42,764 nucleotides of DNA, taken from IMG/VR virus record IMGVR_UViG_3300045988_053243. One strand, 5' to 3'. Positions 14,512-42,571 of this stretch are shown piece after piece. The notes beneath the pieces were generated by a model. It was not told the DNA's origin. It was given only the letters and a program-made list of their open reading frames with translations, and ran no database searches. A program made the position numbers and the translations under genes. The first letter of the stretch is position 1, and each line of letters starts with the position of its first letter. Origin of the DNA: a virus.

Positions 14512-15744
14512 TTACAGAAGGGTTACGGATGCGGTGCCGCTCTTGCTTGCGTCCTGCTTCGACTCAGCAGTTACCGTGAGGCTCGATGCAGTCTCCGCCT
14601 TGTCAACGGTCAGCAGGCCGTCCTCGGTGATCTTGGTGTTAGCCTTTGCGCCGCCGGAAACACTCCACGATACGCTGTCGGAAACAATGCCGTCGCCGGT
14701 TACATCCGCAGTAAACACCTTGGAACCGCCCTTTGCAAGGCTTGCAGTCGCCGGAGTTACCTTTACATTGGAAACAGTGCCGCCGTTGCCGTAAACGGAG
14801 AACGGGAACGGGTTTTCCATGTCCGCATTAAATGCAGTTACCGGGTTTGCGATCTCCCAGCCGAGGCGCATAACCGCGCGCAGCGCAACCATGTCGTTCT
14901 GCATGAGGTTGTACTGGATTGCCTTGGTAGACGGATCCTGAATAACGCCCTCGGTGAAGATCTTGAACGTGATGTCCTGGCGGATTGCGTACACGAGCTG
15001 CGACCAGTCGCCGACAATCATCTTTGCGAGCGTCGGGTCAAACGCGCCGTTATTCGGGAAATACATATCCATGCCGTCCAGAGCGTAGCGAGACGCGCCC
15101 TGCATGTCAGTCTTAAAGATCGGCTGACCGGTGGTATCTACCAGACCGCGCAGCTTGCCGCGCATCTGTACGGCGGATACAACGCCGTTCGGGCTGTAGC
15201 CGTCCAGTTCAACCTTTGCGATCAGGCCGTTCTCGCCCATGATGTCGCCGAAAGTGTCGGTAGAGGTCGGAACGCCGTTGCCTGCTGCAATCGCAGACGG
15301 GACAACGCCATCACGCCACGTGGTCGGCTTGTCAGCGCCGAACAGGATTGCGGCGTCAATCTTCTTGCCGAACGCCTCGACCAGACGCGGACGAACTTCA
15401 CCCCAGATGTCGTAATCCGCATCATCCAGAACTGCCTCCGGGATGGGGACGATTACCGCGATTTCCTCGGCGTAAATCTTCTTCTTCTCCCATGCCATCT
15501 TGGTCGTCTGCTTGTACGCTGCGGAGTCAGCCGCGCCAGTTCCGGAAACCTCGCCGTTTACCCAGTAAGCGGTCGGCAGCATATCCAGAACGTTCATGGT
15601 CTGGGTCTTGCTGGTCATGTTCGGCAGGCGGCGAGCCATACGCAGCACTGCCGACTCTGCAACAGCGCCCTGAAGGATTTCACGAGTTACCGGCTCCGGG
15701 ATGAGGCCGGAAAGGGAATTGCGGTCAATTACGTTATTTGCCAT
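14512..15744 (-). CDS. Major capsid protein (HK97-fold type) with a C-terminal Ig-like (Big_2-type) domain
   Basis: 410 aa located after the scaffold gene. The C-terminal roughly 90 aa (VKVTPATASLAKGGSKVFTADVTG...LTVTAESKQD) matches the bacterial Ig-like group 2 pattern. Confidence 0.85.
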   Translation of the reverse strand: MANNVIDRNSLSGLIPEPVTREILQGAVAESAVLRMARRLPNMTSKTQTMNVLDMLPTAYWVNGEVSGTGAADSAAYKQTTKMAWEKKKIYAEEIAVIVPIPEAVLDDADYDIWGEVRPRLVEAFGKKIDAAILFGADKPTTWRDGVVPSAIAAGNGVPTSTDTFGDIMGENGLIAKVELDGYSPNGVVSAVQMRGKLRGLVDTTGQPIFKTDMQGASRYALDGMDMYFPNNGAFDPTLAKMIVGDWSQLVYAIRQDITFKIFTEGVIQDPSTKAIQYNLMQNDMVALRAVMRLGWEIANPVTAFNADMENPFPFSVYGNGGTVSNVKVTPATASLAKGGSKVFTADVTGDGIVSDSVSWSVSGGAKANTKITEDGLLTVDKAETASSLTVTAESKQDASKSGTASVTLL

Positions 15745-16345: not shown

Positions 16346-17515
16346 TTATTCAATTACTTTCATGCGGTTGGTCTGCGTCGGCAGGCTCGCCGCCCGGCTG
16401 AATTCGCGATATTCTTTCTTCAATCGGCGAATGCGGATGCCTGTTTGCTCTTCCTTGCCCGTCATTCCTGCGGCGTTGTACGCGGCTCTGCGGCGCTCCA
16501 GTTTTCGCACTGTGCGTTCTATCTTGCGCTGCATCTGCGTTGCTTCATAGGCGCTGTACGTGCGCCCCTCGAACTCCACAGGCGGTGGGTCGATGTTCGC
16601 AAGCTCGTCGTCTGTGTAGACGCGCTCAGAAACGCCCTCTAAAAACGCATGCCGATGATGCCTACAGTTAGCGCCCTCCAGACCGTCAACAGCACCCAAT
16701 CCACAAACCTTGTAAATATTCGGGTATTTGCTGCCGTCTTTCGTGCTGTAAACCTTGCCTTGCCATGCCTTGTGGTTCTTCCATCCTGTGCCTTTATCAC
16801 GCGCGCCGCGATGGGCGGTGATTTCGTACAGGTCAGTTTCCAGTGTTTCCGCAGCCGTTTCCGTGTATTTCGAGGTGAGCTGATTTAGCCCCGTGAAAAT
16901 AGCTCTGCGCGCTGCAACGTCTGCATGGTCTCTGTGCCCTGTCGCATAGTCAATCGTGTATATGCCGCTGTCTGCAAGCTCTCTAACTGCATCCTCAAGT
17001 GACTGCTGCAACGTAAACGCGCCGGACTGCATTTTCACTTCTGCTTTGTCAAGGGCGGCTTGATACGCCTTTGCAATCGGCTGAAATGTAGCCTTTCCGT
17101 TTGTTTGCAGTGCAAAACCGAGAGAGCGCGTAATGTTGCGGTATCCGTCAAGCGTCTGTGACTGTATCTGCGCGATATCCGCAGCCGTCACCCAGAAAAG
17201 CGGTTCGGCAACACTCGCTTTGCTTGCAAGCTCGTTGTAATACTTCTGGTTGTATTCAACAACACGGTCAAGTGCTTCCTGCACCCGTGGAAGCGTCTCT
17301 TTGCTGTGCTTTGCAATCATTCGTTCGATGGTCTCCATATCCAGACCACGCGCACGCAGCGCGCGAATATCGTTTATGGTGACTTCGTTCAGCTCGCCGG
17401 TCAGCTTAAAGCGTGAACATATCTCGCGCAAGATGTCCTTTTCGAGCTCTCGCATTGCAATCGCAATCGGTTCGGGCGCTGCGTCGAGGTATTCCGGTGT
17501 GATTGGATACTTCAT
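16346..17515 (-). CDS. Head morphogenesis protein (SPP1 gp7 / Mu F family)
   Basis: 389 aa directly after the portal gene, with the motif GANCRHHRHAF near the C terminus. Confidence 0.8.
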   Translation of the reverse strand: MKYPITPEYLDAAPEPIAIAMRELEKDILREICSRFKLTGELNEVTINDIRALRARGLDMETIERMIAKHSKETLPRVQEALDRVVEYNQKYYNELASKASVAEPLFWVTAADIAQIQSQTLDGYRNITRSLGFALQTNGKATFQPIAKAYQAALDKAEVKMQSGAFTLQQSLEDAVRELADSGIYTIDYATGHRDHADVAARRAIFTGLNQLTSKYTETAAETLETDLYEITAHRGARDKGTGWKNHKAWQGKVYSTKDGSKYPNIYKVCGLGAVDGLEGANCRHHRHAFLEGVSERVYTDDELANIDPPPVEFEGRTYSAYEATQMQRKIERTVRKLERRRAAYNAAGMTGKEEQTGIRIRRLKKEYREFSRAASLPTQTNRMKVIE

Positions 17516-18933
17516 TCAATCTCATCTTCCCCCTCGTCTGTCATATCCTGTGCTTTCGGCAGCATTTTCTTTGCCGTCTCGTCATCCTCATTGAGCCACT
17601 TAGCGCGGAATTCCCAGTCGTTCATAATGCCTGCGTTAAGCAGTTGCATGTCTCGCGTGAAGTCCGTGCTCTTGTCCTCGATGATGCTGTCGTCAAAGTC
17701 AATGCTGATTTCCACATCCTCGTTCAGCCCGGCGTTCATTGCATCATTTCCGAGTCGCAGAATAATGCGGCACAGCTCCACAAGTGCCTGCTCAAGGATG
17801 ATTTCATGCTTCTTGATCGTGCGGAACATGGTGCTGTTTTCGCTGATTACCTGCGTGGCGGTTGCAACGCTTGCGCCGTCGAAGTGGTAATAGCTCTCGC
17901 CGAAACCTGTCTTGGTTGACAGCAGGTTCAGCTGATCTTGAATGCCTCGGTTGTGCTCGCCGGTTCTCAGCGTCATATCAATCGGCTGAATGATATTGCC
18001 ATCCTGTGTGTCCTCCGGCAGCACATAATATGCGAGCTCGTCCGGGTCGAATACCGGCTCGCCGTCAAGGTAATTCGTCGCAGCAGGCTTTACCATGATG
18101 CGCTTTTTGCCGAGCAGGAACTCGTTTACATAGCTGTCATATGCGATATCAACGCCTTTCAGAACGTCAATCGCGTTTGCATAGACCGGAATGCCGAGCG
18201 GAATGTAATAATCAAAGTTGTTCGCGATGTTCAAACGATCAATCACAAACTGCCGCTTGTTCGAACCGGTATGCACAACAGGAGGGATTTTCTCAAACCC
18301 CGGCACGTTCGCAAGGCTTTCTTCAGTCAAACTTTCATTTGTGATTTTGAAAATGCGGTTTTCGATGTCGTAAAAGCCGATTTCATTTCGCTTGTGGATT
18401 TGCAGATAGCAGTAATCCTCGCCTTTCACGGTGGTTCTGCTGTCGAACGCGCATTCCATGATAACGCCGTTCTGCCATGCCAGAGGGAAAATGTGCTCTA
18501 CAGTCACATAATCAATCTGAATGCCGTTTGCTGTGCCTGCAATAGGCTGTTCGCCGTACGACACTGCACCGACAACACGCGGAATGTATGCGACCGTACC
18601 CAGTGCAGACTTCATTTCCTGCATCTCGTTCGCCTTTACCTCGAAGTTGTTCTCTTCAAAGATGCGGTCGACGAACGCCTGTTCTTTCTCGCCCTCCAAG
18701 GTGATCTTCACCTTTTCGTTCATGAGTAGGTTCGCCCAGTCCTCGGCTAACTTCTTCGCCATACCGAGCGTATATCGCTTGCAATGCACGGTTCGGCCGC
18801 AGTTCCGCACCTTGTAATGGTGGAATGACTTCACATCACCCACATACCAGCTGCGCCACTCCGCAACCTTACCGTAAAACTCGGGGGCAATTGTGTTATA
18901 GCCGAGCTCTTTCAGTTTTTCAATGATCGTCAA
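17512..18933 (-). CDS. Portal protein (SPP1 gp6-like)
   Basis: 473 aa directly after TerL, with an acidic C terminus. Confidence 0.85.
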   Translation of the reverse strand: MTIIEKLKELGYNTIAPEFYGKVAEWRSWYVGDVKSFHHYKVRNCGRTVHCKRYTLGMAKKLAEDWANLLMNEKVKITLEGEKEQAFVDRIFEENNFEVKANEMQEMKSALGTVAYIPRVVGAVSYGEQPIAGTANGIQIDYVTVEHIFPLAWQNGVIMECAFDSRTTVKGEDYCYLQIHKRNEIGFYDIENRIFKITNESLTEESLANVPGFEKIPPVVHTGSNKRQFVIDRLNIANNFDYYIPLGIPVYANAIDVLKGVDIAYDSYVNEFLLGKKRIMVKPAATNYLDGEPVFDPDELAYYVLPEDTQDGNIIQPIDMTLRTGEHNRGIQDQLNLLSTKTGFGESYYHFDGASVATATQVISENSTMFRTIKKHEIILEQALVELCRIILRLGNDAMNAGLNEDVEISIDFDDSIIEDKSTDFTRDMQLLNAGIMNDWEFRAKWLNEDDETAKKMLPKAQDMTDEGEDEIE

Positions 18934-20168
18934 GCAATCACTCCCATTCTTCTGTAAACACGCTCAAGGGCGTATCTCGTGGCGTCAATCAGATGGTTCT
19001 TTTCATCTGGATAGCCGCTGATGATCTCGCCGTCCTTGTCGCGCTCATACTCATAGTTCACAAACTCATCATAGGCGTGCGGCGTTCGCTTGCGGTCGAT
19101 GACAAGTGTCCTGCGCTGTAGCCACTTCATGCCGTACTCGACACTGCCGGGACCCTTCACGGCCTCTTTGGCAGGCAGTCGCATAGCGCGGTAGTCTGCA
19201 ACGCTTTTGGGTTCTGCACTGTCGCAGGTGATAAACGTGTCATTATAGCCGCGCTCCATGATAATACCGGCGCTTTCCTCGTTACTCAGCTTGTTTTTGT
19301 ATATCTCATCGATAAAATACACTGTCTCACGCGCCCTGTCGTAGTGGACGCGGATAAAAGCGAACGGGTCGGGGAACCATCCCCAGTCAGCGCCTTGATA
19401 GATATGGTCGAACGTTGCCACCTCATCATCTGTGATTTCTCGCAGTTCAAGGTTTTCAAAGACGTTTCCGCCCGTGCCGACCGGAATGCCGAGGTATTCA
19501 TGCTGATACGCTCGCTCGTTCGTCAGTTTTAGGTGCTCCGCCTCATAGATAAACTGATCGCCTAACCACTCGCGCGGCGCTTCAAGGTACGTGCTGCGGT
19601 GGCAGAGACGGTCAGGGCGTTCTTCTAAACTGTCCTTGTTCGCCCAGTTGTCGCGGCTGATCGGAGGGTTATAACTCTCAAAGTTCCAATACTTATCACC
19701 GCCGCGCATTGTAGACTGCAAGATCGTTCGGATTTCCGCGCGTCCTGCGAACTGGTCTTTTTCCTCGAAATGCGTAACAGCAATATAGCCAAACGGAACC
19801 TTGATTGACTTGATTTTCATCGGGTCATCAGCGCCGCGAAACATGATTTTCTGTCCGGTTGGGCGATATATCAGCTCCATCGGCGATACCTTCGCGTCCC
19901 AGTAGTCAGCCATGCCCAACTCACCGATTGCCCACACATACTGCGCATATACGCTGTCGCGGATGGTGTTTGCAACCTTGCGTAACACAAGCGCATGCGT
20001 TCCGGGGTTGTGGATAAGCAGCAGCGGAACGACAATCGACACAAACGACGATTTCAGCGAGCCACGGCCGCCGCTCTCATCGTAATGTGTGTGTCCATGC
20101 TCGAATACATCGTGCGCGACAGGGTAAAATGCAGGGCCGATTACCTGAGATAGTTTTAACTCAGACAT
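18930..20168 (-). CDS. terL: Terminase large subunit
   Basis: 412 aa. It has a Walker-A-like segment GGRGSLKS near the N terminus, a C-terminal nuclease-type region, and overlaps TerS. Confidence 0.9.
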   Translation of the reverse strand: MSELKLSQVIGPAFYPVAHDVFEHGHTHYDESGGRGSLKSSFVSIVVPLLLIHNPGTHALVLRKVANTIRDSVYAQYVWAIGELGMADYWDAKVSPMELIYRPTGQKIMFRGADDPMKIKSIKVPFGYIAVTHFEEKDQFAGRAEIRTILQSTMRGGDKYWNFESYNPPISRDNWANKDSLEERPDRLCHRSTYLEAPREWLGDQFIYEAEHLKLTNERAYQHEYLGIPVGTGGNVFENLELREITDDEVATFDHIYQGADWGWFPDPFAFIRVHYDRARETVYFIDEIYKNKLSNEESAGIIMERGYNDTFITCDSAEPKSVADYRAMRLPAKEAVKGPGSVEYGMKWLQRRTLVIDRKRTPHAYDEFVNYEYERDKDGEIISGYPDEKNHLIDATRYALERVYRRMGVIA

Positions 20169-20478
20169 CGATAATCACCTTCACGCCTTCGCTTTCGATC
20201 TTTTCCTCTACTGTGTCGCGCTGTCCGAGGTACTGCTTGCCCAACCAGATAAGCATCTGGATGTTACCGCCACGAGCAGCGTTAAACTGCCAGTGTCGCA
20301 GGCTCAGTTTCATTTCTGCAACGCCTTTATAGTAAGCCTCGGTCACTTCCTTGCGATTGTGAAACGTCGCGCGGGAGAACCCAAGCGCCTTTGAAATTTC
20401 TTCTTGTGTATTGCCCTCGCTCGCGAGCTCCTGCACAGCGTCAAGGTCAATAGCTTTCTTCGGTCTGCCTCTAGGCAT
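20161..20478 (-). CDS. terS: Terminase small subunit (HTH type)
   Basis: 105 aa. The N terminus carries an HTH (MPRGRPKK...NTQEEISKALGFSRATFHN). The position and overlap with TerL fit. Confidence 0.8.
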   Translation of the reverse strand: MPRGRPKKAIDLDAVQELASEGNTQEEISKALGFSRATFHNRKEVTEAYYKGVAEMKLSLRHWQFNAARGGNIQMLIWLGKQYLGQRDTVEEKIESEGVKVIIDV

Positions 20479-22010: not shown

Positions 22011-22035
22011 ATAACAGCACCTCCTAACGATAGCT

Positions 22036-22141
22036 ATTATACGCCTCAGATATGTTTGTGTAAATATACATAACCCACAAATATACTTGCGCAAATATAG
22101 TTATTTTGCCCATTGCTATACTTGCGCAAATATATTATACT
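22036..22141. promoter_or_regulatory. Divergent promoter region with two 18-bp operator repeats
   Basis: tatacttgcgcaaatata occurs at 22082-22099 and 22117-22134, with a palindromic core TTGCGCAA. The minus promoter is TTTACA (22064-22059), 17 bp, TATAAT (22041-22036). The plus promoter is TTGCTA (22113-22118), 17 bp, TATACT (22136-22141), with operator 2 in the spacer. Confidence 0.6.
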
Positions 22142-22189
22142 ATAGTCACAGTAAAGGAAAACACAAAAAACAATTTGGAGGTACACACC

Positions 22190-22387
22190 ATGACTGACAT
22201 TCTCACTACTCTCGACAACCGCTTCTGCGGTAAGTACACTAACTGCATCGGCTGCCCGCTCTATGACGCCTGCTGCCTCTGCAGATGCATTCCGGCCGAC
22301 GCTTGGAGGAAGCCGGACGAAGAGATCGAACAGCTCTTCCGGAAAGGTCTCACGGAAGCCCTCGCCGCTTACGACGCACAGCACTAA
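22190..22387 (+). CDS. Cys-rich small protein (65 aa)
   Basis: RBS ggagg plus ATG 22190. The sequence MTDILTTLDNRFCGKYTNCIGCPLYDACCLCRC contains seven Cys in the first 32 aa. Confidence 0.65.
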   Translation: MTDILTTLDNRFCGKYTNCIGCPLYDACCLCRCIPADAWRKPDEEIEQLFRKGLTEALAAYDAQH

Positions 22388-22450
22388 CGGTTCTCGCGGG
22401 TTCACCCTTAAAGCCCGCACCCATCAATTTTTATTTGGAGGTACAAACCA

Positions 22451-22992
22451 TGAACACCATCAAGCACACCGAGTACAAACACAACGGCCGCCGCGTTATC
22501 CTCGACACCTGCGAACTCGCGCCGGGCAAATACGAGACTATGCTCCTGTACCCCAACGGCCACGAGATTGCCTGCCGCACGGCGCGCACCGAGGCTGATG
22601 CACTGGCAGACTTTGACGAGCTACTGACCGCCTACCCGGCAGACACCAAGCCCGCAGCACCCAAGCCGCTTACCGGCAAGTACGCCAAGCTCCGCGACGA
22701 TCTGATCAAGGCTCACGCAGTCGCCCTTGACGCAGCCGCACAGGTAGAGGACGGCGGCACCTGCAATTTAGATGCGCCCTCGCTTTTACTCCCGCGCTGG
22801 CAGTCCGCCAAGGTCAAGCAGGCTTGCGAGGAGGCCGGCGGCGATTACTTCCGCTGGGGCTACTCCAACCGCTATGTTATCTGTTTGCGACTTCCCGGCC
22901 AGGCATACAAGCGCGAGACCGCAGCCGAGGCCATGACCAAGGCGCTTACCGCTATGGGTTATGATGCCCTTACATACTGCGCCATCGACTAA
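22451..22992 (+). CDS. Hypothetical protein (180 aa) of a mobile-element-associated type
   Basis: RBS ggagg plus ATG 22451, in the same upstream context as the preceding gene. Motifs DGGTCNLDAP and GQAYKRETAAEAM..GYDALTYCAID are present. Confidence 0.65.
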
Positions 22993-23070
22993 CCCCTCGA
23001 CAAACCGCCCAATCTGCGGTACAATAACAACAACCCGCCCCGGAGGAACGAAGGCAGAAAGGAAACAACC

Positions 23071-23337
23071 ATGAAAACCGCACAGAAATCCGTACATTTT
23101 ATCCAGCACGTGGGGACATCCTCCTTCGGAAACTTCCCCATTCCCGAGGGTTTCGGCTTGTACTTCACCAAGTACAACCCGGAGACCGGCGAGGGCCACG
23201 GTTGGTATGGTACAGCCACGGAAAAGGCGTACCATTTCGAGCGAAAGATCATCGGCGGCACACTCATGCAGCACGAATGCGGCTATGGCCGCGGCTGCTT
23301 TTACAACGAGTGGAAGGATGCGTCGTGGGGTGTGTAA
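23071..23337 (+). CDS. Hypothetical protein (88 aa)
   Basis: ORF with an aaagga RBS; last gene of the plus-strand cassette. Confidence 0.6.
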   Translation: MKTAQKSVHFIQHVGTSSFGNFPIPEGFGLYFTKYNPETGEGHGWYGTATEKAYHFERKIIGGTLMQHECGYGRGCFYNEWKDASWGV

Positions 23338-23393
23338 GGCGCATCCCACGCTAACCAGTCACCCGCCCCGATGTACCTTTTGATTTCATCACT

Positions 23394-23440
23394 AAGTAAA
23401 AGCACCTTCCCGAAGCCATCCCGGGTAGGTGCTTTTACTT
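23394..23440. terminator. Bidirectional terminator-like hairpin
   Basis: 14-bp perfect stem aagtaaaagcacct/aggtgcttttactt plus an inner cccg/cggg helix. An A tract lies upstream and a T tract downstream on both strands. Confidence 0.6.
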
Positions 23441-24290
23441 ATGCAATTGGAGGTGCAGCCACACGGAATCGCACCGCGTATCAACTTTTTGGCTGCATGT
23501 ATACCCCTTTCGGGGTATGTGCGCGTATCGCTGCGCCTTGCGTCCGGCTTTACGGACGGTTTCCCGGCTTGCGCTCAGGGGCTGCTACAAAATAGGACGT
23601 TCGAATTTTGAACCCCTCGCGCGCAGTTATCGGCCTGCAAACCGGCGGACTTTCACCGCAGGGCGCTACCCCGTTGCAGGGAATTACTCCCTGATACACG
23701 TGCTGCTGCGCTGTGTACTGACGCTTTGGCCCTGCGCAAGGCCTGCCGGGCAGTCCGGCAAAGTTCGCAAACAGATGCCCGTCTTTCCGGGCCGTCAGAA
23801 TAGGTGTCAGCGCGCCGTTCCGTAAGCTGCGCCCGCGCCCGTCTTTCCGGGCTGTCAGATTATGGGCAGCCGTTCGGCTGTCTTTTTTTGCCCGCTCACC
23901 CTCATGCAGGCTTTGCGAGCAGATCGCCTTGCACATTGTTTCCGTGCAAGGCTGCGGATACAGAATTCGCCATATGCCGTCACTGCATTCTGTCACTCCG
24001 CCGCCCTCATGCAGGCTTTGGAGCATGTGCGGCATCTCTGCCGCGTTTCCTTGAACTGTATTCCCAAGAGTCAAAGAGCCCGCGCGCCCTCGTGCAGACG
24101 CGGCGGACAGATCGAGACGGTTTCCCGTCTCATTAGGGAATGCTTGGGCGAAAGGAAGTGTGAGCCCCTCCGGCCTCGTGCAGCCTTCGGAGCGTGTCCC
24201 CCGCCGAAGCAGGGGAGAGAATTAGGAGGACATAACCGGAATTTATCAACCCGTGAATGCCGTGGTTTTGCTCCCTTGGAGCTCTTCCAC
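23441..24290 (-). ncRNA. Candidate large structured non-coding RNA (class undetermined; strand call tentative)
   Basis: No credible ORF. At least 10 perfect short helices are present. On the minus strand the loops read GAAA, GAGA, GAAA and C(UUCG)G, and one helix needs a minus-strand-only U-G pair. There is a fourfold ccctcRtgcag motif, a 60-nt tandem duplication and a putative extended -10 at 24305-24297. Confidence 0.45.
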
Positions 24291-24307
24291 GATACTATTG
24301 TATCACA

Positions 24308-24721
24308 TTATTGCGTATTGTGGGGTATTAACTTATCCACAGCATTCAGCGCCATTCTGTGCATGTAACCCTTCACGTGCGCCTCGCTGTAATGCAGCCG
24401 CCGCGCCGTCTGTGCCCATGTCGCGCCGTTCACGTACCGTTCAAGCAGGAGCGTTTGCAGCTCGTTATCCCGCATTTCGCCCAGCACGCGCACAATCTCG
24501 CCGTATATCTCCGCAAGCTGGTTTTCCTTCTCTGCGATCTTCTCGCCCAGTTCGATATAGGGGTCCGCCTTGTTCCCCGTGCTCCCTTTTCCGCCCGGCG
24601 TATCCCTTACCGGCGCGGTTGCGCCCGTTGCCCGTGCATAGGCGCGTTTCCGTGCCTCCTGCAAAGCTGTAATCGTCTTTTCCAGTGCGCGCCCGCGCAT
24701 CAGCCATTCTTTTGCCGTCAT
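24308..24721 (-). CDS. Sigma-70 region-4-like late transcription regulator (ArpU/RinA/DUF1492-like)
   Basis: ATG 24721 follows gaggag and overlaps the upstream stop (ATGA). The C terminus LLERYVNGATWAQTARRLHYSEAHVKGYMHRMALNAV is an HTH pattern. Confidence 0.65.
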   Translation of the reverse strand: MTAKEWLMRGRALEKTITALQEARKRAYARATGATAPVRDTPGGKGSTGNKADPYIELGEKIAEKENQLAEIYGEIVRVLGEMRDNELQTLLLERYVNGATWAQTARRLHYSEAHVKGYMHRMALNAVDKLIPHNTQ

Positions 24722-24966
24722 CGACTTGTAATCTCCTCGGTGCTTCCGTCGTGTTTGAAAGCTATCCGTCTGCGGTAGCTTTCTGTTCTTTTGGTACACC
24801 CTTCTCCCGGCTCGCATCCCCTTGAATGCCGGTTAACTAATGCGTAGTGGCACGCCCACAGCTTCAGATTTTTATAGTTTCCGAGCGTCCGCCAGTAAGC
24901 GCAGTTCCGGCACGGCGTATCTCCATAATAAGTAACGCCGGATTTCCTCGCTGTATTTTTAGTCAT
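24718..24966 (-). CDS. Hypothetical Cys-containing protein
   Basis: 82-aa ORF with CRNC...C...C...C spacing, in an operon context. Confidence 0.55.
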   Translation of the reverse strand: MTKNTARKSGVTYYGDTPCRNCAYWRTLGNYKNLKLWACHYALVNRHSRGCEPGEGCTKRTESYRRRIAFKHDGSTEEITSR

Positions 24967-41415: not shown

Positions 41416-41449
41416 GAGGGTAGTACATTTGAGGAACGTTACTACCCTC
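41416..41449 (+). terminator. Second stem-loop just upstream of int
   Basis: gagggtagta/14-nt loop/tactaccctc followed by ttattat. It could insulate or regulate int. Confidence 0.4.
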
Positions 41450-41482
41450 TTATTATACGACAAAATAGGAGGAAATTCAACA

Positions 41483-42571
41483 ATGAAAAAGAATGCCGAC
41501 GGTTATTACCGTGAGACCTTCACGTTCAAGGGCAGACGGTATGACGTAACCGCCAAGACAGAACGCGAGCTCTGGCGGAAAGTCGACGAGAAAAAGCGCC
41601 GCCTTGAAGAAGGTGTAGACGTGGTGAACGAGAACACGAGCGTCGATAAGTGGTTCGCGGAATACATCGAGACTTACAAAAAGCCGAAAGTGCAGCCGCG
41701 CACCTGTTCTGATCTGCAAGGCTATCTCAAGAACTACATAGCGCCGGAAATCGGCTCTATGCGACTGAAGAATGTTAGAACCGTGCACTTGCAGCGCATC
41801 ATGAACAGCGTTGCAGGCCGTTCCGCGTCCATGGCGTGCAAGCTGCGCGATCTTATCAAAGGCGCGTTCCGGCAGGCGCGTATTGACCGTGTAATCGTTT
41901 ACGACCCCTCAGAGGCACTGGTTATGCCGGAGACCAAAAACGGCACGCACAGGGCGATTACAGCCGACGAGCGCAAGCATATCCTGCACGTTGCCGAGAC
42001 GCATCGCGCCGGGCTCTGGGTGCTGTTCATGCTGTACACCGGTGCACGCCCGGACGAGACCAGGAAAGCGACATGGGACGATGTTCGCAGAAACGAACAA
42101 AAGATCATCCTGCACTCGTCCAAGACGGATTTCGGCGACAGAGCCGTTCCCCTGCATCCGGCGCTTGCTCCTCTGCTGACCGGCGGCAAAGGTTACATCT
42201 TCACACAGCCGACCACCGGCAAGCCGCACACAAAGCATTCCATGCGCCGCATGTGGGAGAGTTTCAAACGCGCCGTAGACATCGACATGGGAGCACACAC
42301 TTTCAAAGGCGGTGTTATCCCGGAGACTTCAAAGGTAGCCGTGGACCTCACGCCCTACTGCTTGCGTCACACCTACGCAACCGACCTGCAAACGGCAGGC
42401 GTTCCGATCAACGTTGCAAAGGACCTGCTGGGGCACAAGGAGATTTCGATGACAGCGCGTGTTTACACCCACCTGTCTGAGGAGGCGTTCGCCGCAGCGG
42501 TAGACAAGGTGGTTGCACTGGACGCCGCGCGTCGGAGCGGCAAACTGGCGGAAATTAAGTCCCACACTTAG
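41483..42571 (+). CDS. int: Tyrosine integrase
   Basis: ATG 41483 follows aggagg. The catalytic-domain motifs are TGARPDE, HSMRRMW, CLRHTYAT and LLGHKEISMTARVYTH. Confidence 0.9.
   Translation: MKKNADGYYRETFTFKGRRYDVTAKTERELWRKVDEKKRRLEEGVDVVNENTSVDKWFAEYIETYKKPKVQPRTCSDLQGYLKNYIAPEIGSMRLKNVRTVHLQRIMNSVAGRSASMACKLRDLIKGAFRQARIDRVIVYDPSEALVMPETKNGTHRAITADERKHILHVAETHRAGLWVLFMLYTGARPDETRKATWDDVRRNEQKIILHSSKTDFGDRAVPLHPALAPLLTGGKGYIFTQPTTGKPHTKHSMRRMWESFKRAVDIDMGAHTFKGGVIPETSKVAVDLTPYCLRHTYATDLQTAGVPINVAKDLLGHKEISMTARVYTHLSEEAFAAAVDKVVALDAARRSGKLAEIKSHT

Follow-up and report, generated by a model that had tools for sequence, protein, structure and literature searches.

The stretch of DNA analysed here, hereafter the window, is a 42,764-nt virus sequence (IMG/VR record IMGVR_UViG_3300045988_053243). 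In this temperate gut phage, positions 23441-24300 form a gap between a gene for an Ltr-type late activator and the packaging and head genes, and the gap is non-coding and hairpin-rich (Table 1). Homologues of the regulator in two related loci, L025 and L035, also matched DUF1492, likewise slightly under threshold. A preliminary description of this DNA had claimed that the gap contains no open reading frame equipped with both a start codon and a ribosome-binding site. Mechanical calling did return ORFs of up to 174 aa, but the non-coding status was upheld: no gap ORF matched Pfam or PHROG, and among relatives 95-97% identical we found no codon-position bias in substitutions and 46 indels of 1 nt across pairwise comparisons. 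Neither a tRNA nor a tmRNA was found in the window.

Table 1 Features of the gap and its borders (window coordinates; predicted roles are marked as such).
Feature	Position	Strand	Description
Ltr-superfamily late-activator gene	24308-24817	-	DUF1492 / sigma-70 region-4-like; sub-threshold Pfam Sigma70_r4_2; PHROG 36/248 'transcriptional regulator/activator'
Extended -10, TRTG-type (putative promoter)	24297-24307	-	TGTGATACAAT, read from sequence; directly 3' of the regulator TAA stop; no -35
H0, two-tier hairpin	24261-24291	-	CGUGG/CCACG around GCUCC-AAG-GGAGC; predicted RNA 5' end
CU-rich tract	24216-24235	-	GUCCUCCUAAUUCUCUCC; resembles an anti-Shine-Dalgarno sequence
Unit A	24164-24215	-	hp1 24198-24215, UUCG loop; hp2 24164-24193, inner helix GGC/GCC, loop UGCACGAG
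Unit B	24078-24131	-	hp1 24114-24131, GAAA loop; hp2 24078-24108, inner helix GUC/GGC, loop UGCACGAG
Unit C	23995-24044	-	hp1 24029-24044, GAGA loop; hp2 23995-24024, loop UGCAUGAG
Unit D	23890-23951	-	hp1 23927-23951; hp2 23890-23920
Antisense intrinsic terminator inside the region	23864-23890	+	8-bp stem, two plus-strand G-U pairs, then T7
M2 module, two copies	23776-23862	-	YAUUCUGACRG flank and hairpin GCCCG-GAAAGA-CGGGC at 23836-23852 and 23776-23792
Local hairpins 23745-23759, 23677-23693, 23542-23557	within 23542-23759	-	pairing kept in all relatives; variation G-C to G-U
Hairpin 23501-23518 and nested hairpin 23455-23496	23455-23518	-	AUACCCC-GAAA-GGGGUAU at 23501-23518
Bidirectional intrinsic terminator	23396-23438	-	arms of 20 nt, 95% complementary, spanning 23393-23441; predicted RNA 3' end
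Hairpins confirmed from the preliminary description	23501-23518, 23542-23557, 23677-23693, 23777-23792, 23837-23852, 23867-23880, 23927-23951, 24029-24044, 24114-24131, 24198-24215

Every hairpin listed in the preliminary description was recovered when the exact arms were checked, the helix given there as 23926-23952 corresponding to 23927-23951, and the minus-strand loops read UUCG, GAAA, GAGA and GAAA, as it had noted. Its conflicting indications about the strand could be settled. G-U pairs occurred on the minus strand in every hairpin except 23864-23883, which pairs better on the plus strand and is apparently a genuine antisense terminator; the claimed plus-strand terminator looks real, and it was kept in all close relatives, including those that lack the plus-strand cassette. 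In 20 distinct close relatives, 99.5% of the 2518 stem cells (133 pairs) were paired, and variable stem positions formed A-U/G-U/G-C series or C-G/G-C swaps, indicating a minus-strand RNA. The compensatory changes that had been proposed as a check were thus seen in homologous regions, supporting a structured minus-strand RNA. Folding energies compared with 20 shuffles per strand gave z = -6.1 for the minus and -2.5 for the plus strand over the whole region; 290-nt segments gave -2.8/-2.3/-3.8 (minus) and -0.6/-3.3/-2.7 (plus), with a mean of -0.5 for coding controls. The thermodynamic excess over shuffled sequences is moderate; it is covariation, not folding energy, that provides the strong evidence. 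Collectively, these data indicated that this 0.86-kb gene-free stretch most likely gives rise to a highly folded, untranslated minus-strand RNA of ~0.9 kb. The idea of one large ornate fold was abandoned, as no evidence for it was found: the conserved feature is a modular series of small hairpin elements, whose number and order differ between relatives (3, 4 or 5 units and a mosaic 3' half; 2 units in L035 and L228).

The modules are arranged as a 5' two-tier hairpin (H0), a CU-rich tract, four tandem units each made of two hairpins (hp1 and hp2), more hairpin modules and a terminator. We infer that the RNA starts at the TRTG-type extended -10 (TGTGATACAAT, 24307-24297) abutting the regulator stop codon, a putative promoter already proposed in the preliminary description. 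The element is conserved in distant lineages: the combination of stop codon and TGTGnTAYWAT recurred in L009, L025, L035, L223, L225 and L231, a set of loci in which regulator identity is no higher than 30-41%. At the other end, the bidirectional terminator previously placed at 23394-23440 was found at 23393-23441, and both proposed limits of the RNA are supported. The H0 orthologue of L233 kept both helices with a different sequence (CGUGAU/AUCACG and GCCC/GGGC), and the counterpart in L025, L035 and L231 consisted of UUGAG/CUCAA around GCCCC/GGGGY. A CCUCCUUUCU-type tract, similar to the CU tract, preceded the first unit in every leader-type lineage. A small antisense ORF opposite the CU tract was present only in L035, L228 and L231 and was discarded as not conserved.

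The 5' half is built from four units of 83-105 nt, in which a variable hairpin (hp1) is followed 1-6 nt later by a conserved one (hp2); in 19 of 21 units, a stable hp1 with this 1-6-nt distance to hp2 was present. The four-fold recurring motif noticed earlier is real: CTGCAYGAGG had four minus-strand matches in the gap and one elsewhere, against a chance expectation of 0.22 for the whole window, and none of 100 shuffles reached five matches. Over 37 nt, identity between the window units was 62-82%; they were spaced 83, 86 and 105 nt apart, and Tandem Repeats Finder reported no repeat. With covariance model R1, units A and C scored 46.2 bits (E = 2.8e-11) and 48.1 bits (E = 7.9e-12), respectively; unit B scored 22.8 bits (E = 8e-4) with model R2, and unit D, which is missing from eight close relatives, scored 30.6 bits with R1 and 40.1 bits with R2. 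The hp1 loops varied, with UUCG in unit A and in L025 and GAAA, GAGA, 9 nt, UAUU and others elsewhere. One hp1 stem position of unit B (columns 177/188) was A-U in 7 close relatives, G-U in 9 and G-C in 4.

Unlike hp1, hp2 has a constant build: a 5-6-bp outer helix of free sequence, a purine-rich internal loop of the AAA/GGA type, a 3-bp helix and an 8-nt loop, UGCAYGAG. Among 31 distinct copies from about six phage lineages, in alignments that were fitted to the model and hence lean towards structure, 96.3% of cells were paired, six of the eight pairs showed compensatory changes (41 cells altered on both sides), and G-U cells numbered 24 versus 3 A-C cells. The covariation score was 0.59, as compared with 0.20 in shuffles (none of 500 reached 0.59) and 0.05-0.10 when the partners were slid. 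Symmetric core positions even varied between units of one phage (GCC/GGC, GGC/GCC, GUC/GGC) with pairing kept. Intergenic copies scored 41-55 bits, as against 19.5-26 bits for coding sequences that match the 15-nt core by chance, and the hp2 model found nothing above 18.9 bits in 642 kb of other phage DNA. Pairing of the loop with phage mRNA was considered and rejected: its complement CUCAUGCA was not recurrent on the sense strand of motif-bearing loci, and the only complementary 10-nt stretch, at 14899-14908 within the major head gene, did not exceed chance expectation.

The covariance-model scan with Rfam 15 returned no match in the whole window at the gathering threshold; at E values up to 10, positions 23300-24400 gave only chance matches (miRNA, snoRNA and similar), far under gathering scores. 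The suggested membership in GOLLD, ROOL, raiA, HEARO or another Rfam 15 family was thus not borne out. Scanning nine related loci revealed other motifs, none of them at hp2. In L035, DUF3800-VIII separates the two hp2 units; in L049, skipping-rope precedes hp2 by ~100 nt; and GP20-b was found in L038. Skipping-rope, DUF3800-I to XI and GP20-b are phage-associated structured RNA motifs of unknown function (PMC5737381), alike to hp2 in kind and neighbourhood; hp2 matches none of them, and they are not found as single-motif tandem arrays. We conclude that hp2 is a conserved RNA motif outside all Rfam families.

In the 3' half, a tandem duplication of roughly 60 nt had been described. The repeat (M2) exists, but it comprises only 26 nt at 92% identity, with copies 60 nt apart, and was likewise not reported by Tandem Repeats Finder. 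Its GCCCG/CGGGC stems changed to GCUCG/CGAGC and G-U variants among relatives (columns 468/480 and 529/540), and M2 copies were also present in L233, L005 and L038. Within 23455-23518, a compensatory C-G/G-C swap divided the relatives (columns 859/866, 9 versus 11 sequences), and G-U, A-U and G-C were all found at columns 895/909; hairpin 23501-23518 was shared with L025 (20 of 21 nt). Beyond the terminator, L014, L005 and L016 are without the plus-strand cassette and lead directly into same-strand packaging genes. In most relatives the terminator was followed by 3-7 copies of GCTTAGATGTT and a -10-like TATCAT, an array that looks like a separate activator-dependent late promoter. In the window, a strong sigma-A-like promoter (TTTACA-N17-TATAAT, ~22040-22070) belongs to the late operon itself, so that readthrough from the gap is not needed there.

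Hp2 was found shortly downstream of Ltr-type genes in three regulator lineages sharing only 30-41% identity (the window family with L233; L025; and L035, L228, L223, L225 and L231), always in the orientation of the flanking regulator and late genes. L223 and L225 displayed the order promoter-like element, H0, CU tract, hp1, hp2, strong intrinsic terminator, ribosome-binding site and terS, which leaves no room for another promoter. In L025, terminators were located ~190 nt past hp2. Single copies occurred inside operons, close upstream of genes, in the L033 family, L049 and L129, and in single-copy contexts the distance from the end of hp2 to the downstream ribosome-binding site was 25-60 nt. 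The L049 copy follows closely on a terminator instead of preceding one and is upstream of scaffold/capsid genes; the copy of the L033 family separates a capsid-like gene from the gene that follows, and no usable -10 was present after hp2 in L033. A link to the terminase lineage was dismissed, hp2 being absent from 80 loci with related TerL.

A host CRISPR array carried several spacers against the 23441-24300 region, which is therefore under host pressure; one apparent motif instance, L253, proved to be a host CRISPR array, with spacers copying the phage, and was taken out of the alignment. When the region and two related loci were compared by blastn with 50,697 phage records, either nothing matched or the matches were confined to unannotated faecal contigs. 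In an 18-mer scan of 185,579 genomes nearly all matches were due to chance; the one genuine instance belonged to an uncultured Clostridia MAG.

Our best guess is that this RNA helps control late-gene transcription. We infer, with a probability of about one in three (0.35), that it is a cis-acting leader element helping RNA polymerase to read through terminators. Transcription from the extended -10 at the regulator stop codon would make the RNA, and the hp1-hp2 units would act in cis on the nascent transcript as docking sites, bound either by RNA polymerase itself or by an elongation factor of host or phage origin. Docking would make the elongation complex resistant to the intrinsic terminator located between the units and the late genes, by a mechanism akin to that of lambda nut/boxB, HK022 put or a LoaP-bound leader hairpin. 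Several copies would increase the chance that a polymerase gets modified; recognition would take place at the surface of the strictly conserved loop, and the variable helices would need only to pair. Antitermination is suggested by the terminators downstream of the units in L223, L225 and L025 and at the predicted end of the window RNA, by the run from terminator into packaging genes in L014, L005 and L016, and by precedent: in Gram-positive bacteria small leader hairpins recruit antitermination factors past intrinsic terminators, LoaP binding a UNCG hairpin in the Bacillus dfn and mln leaders (PMC12691694). Counting against antitermination are the separate, activator-dependent-looking promoter past the terminator in most relatives and the positions of hp2 in L049 and the L033 family. 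Against it, too, are the separate strong promoter of the window late operon, which makes readthrough dispensable there, and the scan of window proteins, in which no N-, Q- or NusG-like family was recognised, several small ORFs being without annotation.

Like lambda N-boxB (nut) and the LoaP hairpin, hp2 is a small hairpin with a strictly conserved loop, in operon orientation, in an untranslated leader upstream of intrinsic terminators. It differs from both in its loop (UGCAYGAG, 8 nt), its internal loop and its two-hairpin unit, and it occurs in up to five tandem copies; its antitermination activity is putative. A lambda-type nut site consists of boxA next to a boxB hairpin with a GNRA-like pentaloop; here, the loop has 8 nt and there is no conserved boxA. 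The sole boxA-like string, GCUCUUUGAC, found after unit B, varied in 95%-identical relatives (CCAUUCGAC, CUAUUUGGC). The UNCG tetraloop of LoaP targets was represented only by the UUCG of hp1 in unit A and L025, and given the other hp1 loops it is not a conserved feature; as for an adjacent gene for a NusG paralogue such as LoaP, no NusG/KOW family match was found among the window proteins scanned. The adjacent pair of stem-loops a few nucleotides apart, downstream of a promoter-like element and upstream of terminators (window, L025, L223 and L225), resembles HK022 put in its arrangement, with cis action hypothesised here. Put is a factor-independent antitermination RNA that occurs once per operon in E. 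coli phages, in contrast to these tandem arrays of gut Firmicutes-type phages. Conservation across unrelated phages would fit host RNA polymerase as the target. That the hp1-hp2 unit is a new RNA antitermination class of Firmicutes-type phages, acting on host RNA polymerase in a put-like manner or as an Ltr ligand, we consider unlikely.

Alternatively, the RNA could act in trans as a stand-alone ncRNA whose tandem hp2 loops titrate a host or phage RNA-binding protein, a decoy or sponge like CsrB/RsmZ. This is rather unlikely in our judgement. It would account for the RNA being bounded by a promoter-like element and a terminator of its own, without any intervening gene on that strand, for the variable copy number and for a window late operon driven by a separate promoter, and the CRISPR spacers fit it weakly; the single copies within operons close upstream of genes and the unit belonging to the terS leader in L223 and L225 argue against it, and no candidate partner protein was identified.

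Rather improbable, too, is a role as an RNA processing or stability signal, in which an RNase or protective protein recognises hp2 and the hairpins set the 5' and 3' ends and half-lives of late mRNA. Four successive units with nothing between them to process are hard to explain in this way, and protective hairpins need no conserved 8-nt loop, although an RNase recognition site would. Nevertheless, intercistronic copies adjoin highly expressed head genes (after the capsid-like gene in the L033 family, before scaffold/capsid in L049), single copies keep the short distance to ribosome-binding sites described above, and the 5'-terminal hairpin H0 is present.

The core could also function as DNA. 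Known Ltr-controlled late-operon regions of Gram-positive phages (RinA/ArpU/LtrA/LtrB/LtrC) are short, with three 7-nt DNA repeats bound by protein, and the short direct repeats recognised by an Ltr protein are located immediately distal to the gene that encodes it (PMC3753634). The present region is likewise placed directly after an Ltr-type gene and before terS, with repeats and a terminator; unlike the known regions, it has ~0.9 kb of structured RNA modules interposed, and the repeated element behaves as an RNA hairpin, not a DNA box. We regard as quite unlikely that the core GCCTGCATGAGGGC binds the Ltr activator or another DNA-binding protein, as a late-promoter activator box or packaging site, with the hairpins being incidental. 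The core is partly palindromic (GCC-N8-GGC), and units often come after terminator-like hairpins and ahead of genes. However, the flanking arms covary with free sequence, symmetric core positions differ among units of one phage with pairing retained, and the excess of G-U over A-C cells is a strand asymmetry that a double-stranded DNA site should lack. The hp2 cores are 83-105 nt apart, unlike known Ltr boxes, the first being ~115 nt from the stop codon; other repeats make better candidates for Ltr boxes (GCTTAGATGTT past the terminator; TGCCGAA or GACGAA twice at the 3' end of the ltr gene), and L033 has no usable -10 after hp2.

ToxI-like type III toxin-antitoxin RNAs and CRISPR arrays have near-identical tandem repeats of ~28-37 nt with regular spacing and an adjoining toxin or cas gene. 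Both were rejected for the units, given their divergence, their unequal spacings and the silence of Tandem Repeats Finder; no toxin or cas gene was found near the region. Finally, it is very improbable that the region is a protein gene, whether decayed or unrecognised, or belongs to a known large RNA family: a 174-aa minus-strand ORF does span units C and D, with the four cores reading (S/R)LHE(G/A) in one frame, and the preliminary description pointed to GOLLD and ROOL in prophages, but internal-loop length differences shift the core frame in L223, L225 and L025, the 1-nt indels break the frame, and neither protein-family, codon-bias nor Rfam searches gave support.

Temperate phages of Clostridia-type gut bacteria are very abundant, and the switching-on of their late genes has hardly been studied. 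The present model of the late switch comes from staphylococcal and streptococcal Ltr activators and involves no components beyond a protein, short DNA repeats, a terminator and a promoter. A conserved, strongly covarying RNA module in one to five copies exactly at the control point suggests an RNA layer in this switch, for which we favour cis-acting antitermination. If the Ltr-ligand version were true, some members of the Ltr 'activator' superfamily would really be antiterminators guided by RNA, comparable to lambda Q/N; a decoy or processing signal, should the element prove to be that instead, would likewise amount to a new RNA-protein recognition element of phages. The motif is 35 nt long and sharply defined, which makes it directly testable, and it could join RNA family libraries and annotate the starts of phage late operons in metagenomes.

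The window is essentially the complete genome of a phage of temperate siphophage type; human gut metagenomes have yielded near-identical contigs 42-45 kb long. On its minus strand, the early module is followed by a small regulator gene (24308-24817) and then by the gap (23441-24300, about 0.9 kb), with a plus-strand gene cassette beyond. The regulator weakly matched Sigma70_r4_2 and also PHROG 36/248; its homologues in the related loci L025 and L035 gave a DUF1492 match just under threshold. Within the Ltr superfamily of late activators, described for Gram-positive phages (PMC3753634), these correspond to families II and III.

In minus-strand sense, the 5' half of the gap RNA consists of four units spaced 83-105 nt, each pairing a variable hairpin (hp1) with a conserved one (hp2). 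hp1 opens the unit and is free in sequence (window loops UUCG, GAAA, GAGA and one of 9 nt); hp2 begins 1-6 nt further on, and 19 of 21 units had a stable hp1 ending at this distance. hp2 is made of an outer helix of 5-6 bp, a roughly 3x3, purine-rich internal loop with AAA facing GGA or GGC, a 3-bp inner helix (GCC/GGC, GGC/GCC or GUC/GGC) and an 8-nt terminal loop, UGCAYGAG, with AAA usually next. A covariance model of hp2 picked out just these four sites and gave only noise-level scores elsewhere in the 42.8-kb window, and no Rfam family matched hp2 in the window or in related loci. The comparisons showed that hp2, located at the late-switch position, is a conserved hairpin motif and a new one.

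Among 31 distinct hp2 sequences, 96.3% of cells were paired, and compensatory changes occurred in 6 of the 8 pairs, with 41 cells differing on both sides. The covariation score was 0.59 versus 0.20 in column shuffles, none of 500 shuffles reached this value, and sliding the 3' partners by 1-3 columns gave 0.05-0.10; fitting of the alignment to the model biases this comparison towards structure, but the difference is large. Unfitted examples were also found, such as GGCGC/GCGC in L033 versus GGUGC/GCACC in its very close relative L065, and GUC/GAC in L225 where others carry GCC/GGC. G-U cells outnumbered A-C cells by 24 to 3. As a specificity control, about 85 chance copies of the 15-nt hp2 core in coding DNA scored 19.5-26 bits versus 41-55 bits for intergenic hp2, and 642 kb of phage DNA picked via a related terminase contained no hp2 match above 18.9 bits.

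Instances of hp2, collected from viral-contig scans, one metagenome scan, loci reached via distant regulator homologues and model searches, fell into about six lineages (see table). In every case the orientation of hp2 was that of the flanking late genes. The motif is rare and confined to few gut-phage lineages. L038 has the same leader type as L035/L228 and L223/L225/L231. Known Rfam phage motifs neighbour hp2 in some of these loci: DUF3800-VIII (48.6 bits) between the two hp2 units of L035 (11744-11809, minus strand), with a homologous stretch in L228 (about 880-945); skipping-rope with its terminator at L049 3198-3297, about 100 nt upstream of hp2; and a GP20-b RNA and a tRNA in L038 (5711-5771 and 1247-1317).

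Every hairpin listed in the preliminary description was found in the gap. Its recurring motif corresponds to four copies of CTGCAYGAGG on the minus strand (whole-window chance expectation 0.22), and its tandem duplication of about 60 nt is actually a 26-nt repeat. Seventeen local hairpins (133 base pairs) were fixed on the window sequence and scored in 20 distinct close relatives, where 99.5% of 2518 stem cells were paired. Compensatory changes were present in these homologous regions: stem columns 177/188, 895/909 and 937/977 varied between A-U, G-U and G-C, and columns 859/866 and 468/480 swapped C-G with G-C or U-A. Folding energy moderately exceeded that of shuffles on both strands and therefore did not settle the strand. 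Read on the plus strand, the G-U intermediates would become A-C mismatches, which indicates that the structures belong to a minus-strand transcript; the sole exception is the hairpin at 23864-23883, for which plus-strand pairing is better. The plus-strand terminator containing it is kept in all close relatives, including those without the plus-strand cassette, and may point to antisense transcription or to protection from convergent transcription. Collectively, these sequence comparisons showed the gap to hold a modular, covarying, predicted minus-strand RNA.

Leader-type lineages had a common element order despite regulators only 30-41% identical: regulator stop codon, TGTGnTAYWAT, H0 (a two-tier hairpin), a CU-rich tract of the type CCUCCUUUCU, hp1, AUAU or ACAY, and hp2. 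H0 showed compensatory differences between lineages. TGTGnTAYWAT lies immediately 3' of the stop codon without a -35 element; we take it to be a TRTG extended -10, a form typical of Firmicutes sigma-A promoters, and infer transcription from it. L223 and L225 have a strong intrinsic terminator about 20 nt past hp2 and then an RBS and terS, with no room for another promoter; in L025, terminators lie about 190 nt past hp2. In the window family, the first unit is followed by three more, a mosaic of further modules and the bidirectional terminator. This mosaic includes an AUACCCC-GAAA-GGGGUAU hairpin common to L025 and a second repeated hairpin (GAAAGA loop, CUGACRG flank), with further copies in L233 (about 547-572), L005 (three) and L038 (about 925-945) and a covarying stem (GCCCG/CGGGC, GCUCG/CGAGC, GCGUG/CACGC, GUGCG/CGUAC). 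L014, L005 and L016 are without the plus-strand cassette and have same-strand packaging genes about 260 nt past the terminator; the window cassette (about 22190-23337) is therefore an optional insertion.

Opposite the CU-rich tract, L035 (minus-sense about 2610-2650), L228 and L231 carry a perfect antisense RBS and ATG, AAGGAGGAAAACATG. The antisense ORF of L035 has 33 hydrophobic codons and overlaps the regulator gene end; in L231 it spans just 7 codons, and the window, L223 and L225 lack it. Within the major head gene, the sense mRNA carries CCUCAUGCAG (window 14899-14908, plus), which is exactly complementary to the 10-nt core of the hp2 loop; this single match, not recurrent in other motif-bearing loci, is probably due to chance.

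We tentatively favour the hypothesis, at a probability of about 0.35, that the hp1-hp2 RNA would control elongation in cis past intrinsic terminators, because of the L223/L225 and L025 arrangements and the two-hairpin unit, because the loop is conserved across phages without an obvious common protein partner, and because such mechanisms exist in Gram-positive bacteria, LoaP being a precedent for antitermination past intrinsic terminators (PMC12691694). A trans-acting decoy RNA, which would fit the array form and the predicted autonomous promoter and terminator, is less likely; a processing or stability signal, fitting the intercistronic copies beside head genes, seems to us just as doubtful.

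Most close relatives carry, straight after the terminator, 3-7 copies (differing by contig) of the 11-nt GCTTAGATGTT and a -10-like TATCAT. This array is similar to the short direct repeats, in helical phase, to which Ltr proteins bind (PMC3753634) and may, by this analogy, be the true Ltr-dependent late promoter/box array, or a packaging site. It is absent from the window, L007, L010 and L015, which lost it at the junction with the plus-strand cassette (near 23392 in the window). Upstream of its late operon the window has instead a near-consensus promoter, TTTACA-N17-TATAAT, together with two operator-like copies of TATATTTGCGCAAGTATA, a sequence that contains a palindrome. This control region separates the first late gene (start 22010, minus) from a small Cys-rich cassette ORF (ATG 22190, RBS GGAGG 22177-22181). 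In the L035 group, two 7-nt repeats, TGCCGAA or GACGAA, lie 10 nt apart in the ltr gene 3' end, just upstream of the TRTG element (L223, about 1440-1470; L225, L231, L035/L228), and match Ltr boxes as described in the literature. A role of hp2 as a DNA site would agree with known Ltr biology but fits neither covariation nor G-U bias, and is improbable; it is further weakened by these direct repeats, which would make more plausible protein-DNA boxes than hp2. Given the separate arrays and promoters, the window-family RNA may be its own transcription unit or an early-transcript 3' end rather than an obligatory late-mRNA 5' leader.

The gap had been called ORF-poor; mechanical ORFs do occur, but none matched a protein family. 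Pairwise comparisons among 11 full-length relatives (95-97% identity) summed to 46 one-nt indels, and substitutions were even over the three codon positions (8/12/12 and 11/14/10). A decayed gene or known large RNA is essentially excluded by these indels, the even substitutions and the lack of an Rfam match.

Features of the window and lineages carrying hp2
Feature	Location	Strand	Description
Integrase	window 41429-42571		at one genome end, with repressors and anti-repressor
Early/replication module	window	minus	Erf-like protein, NinB, HNH endonuclease, SSB, DnaD-like loader, helicase, methyltransferase
Embedded intrinsic terminator	window 23864-23890	plus	8 bp, two G-U, then seven T; canonical
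Second repeated module	window 23776-23802, 23836-23862		flank YAUUCUGACRG and 5-bp hairpin, loop GAAAGA
Divergent control region	window 22030-22200		between plus-strand cassette and first late gene
TerS-like gene	window 20161-20478	minus	packaging
TerL	window 18930-20168	minus	packaging
Portal	window 17512-18933	minus	packaging/head module
Major head protein	window 14512-15744	minus	head module
L253 spacer matches	window 24110-24080, 23916-23883, 23844-23814		plus about 20 other places
GCTTAGATGTT array	L002-L005, L008, L011-L014, L016, L017, L019-L024 (e.g. L014 5423-5470)		then GCTTAGCGGTTATCAT
hp2 lineage 1	window family; diverged relative L233		3 or 4 units; five in L233
hp2 lineage 2	L025		regulator 41% identical
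hp2 lineage 3	L035/L228; L223/L225/L231		two units; one unit; regulators about 30% identical to that of the window
hp2 lineage 4	L033 family (13 viral contigs, one Clostridia MAG)		one unit after 417-aa capsid-like gene
hp2 lineage 5	L049/L110		one unit, between skipping-rope RNA with terminator and scaffold/capsid genes
hp2 lineage 6	L129		one unit upstream of small gene, terS, terL

A host CRISPR locus, L253 (metagenome contig ERZ773204.1381), carries cas1, cas2, 84 repeats of GTCATGCCACGTATGTGGCATGTGGATTGAAAT (I-C-like) and 83 spacers. About 20 of the spacers target the window phage, and others match its relatives. The window matches are all oriented alike, with the spacer corresponding to the minus strand; three are located in the gap, and three more spacers match variant gap versions in relatives. 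L253 thus provides a host link for the phage family, with strand-biased spacer acquisition.

hp2 had no match in Rfam 15 and no description in the searchable literature, a scope that leaves out most subscription journals. A small conserved leader or intergenic phage RNA hairpin is a familiar kind of element; what is new about hp2 is the motif itself, its arrangement in tandem arrays and its location behind Ltr-type genes. The motif has good support and lends itself readily to testing.
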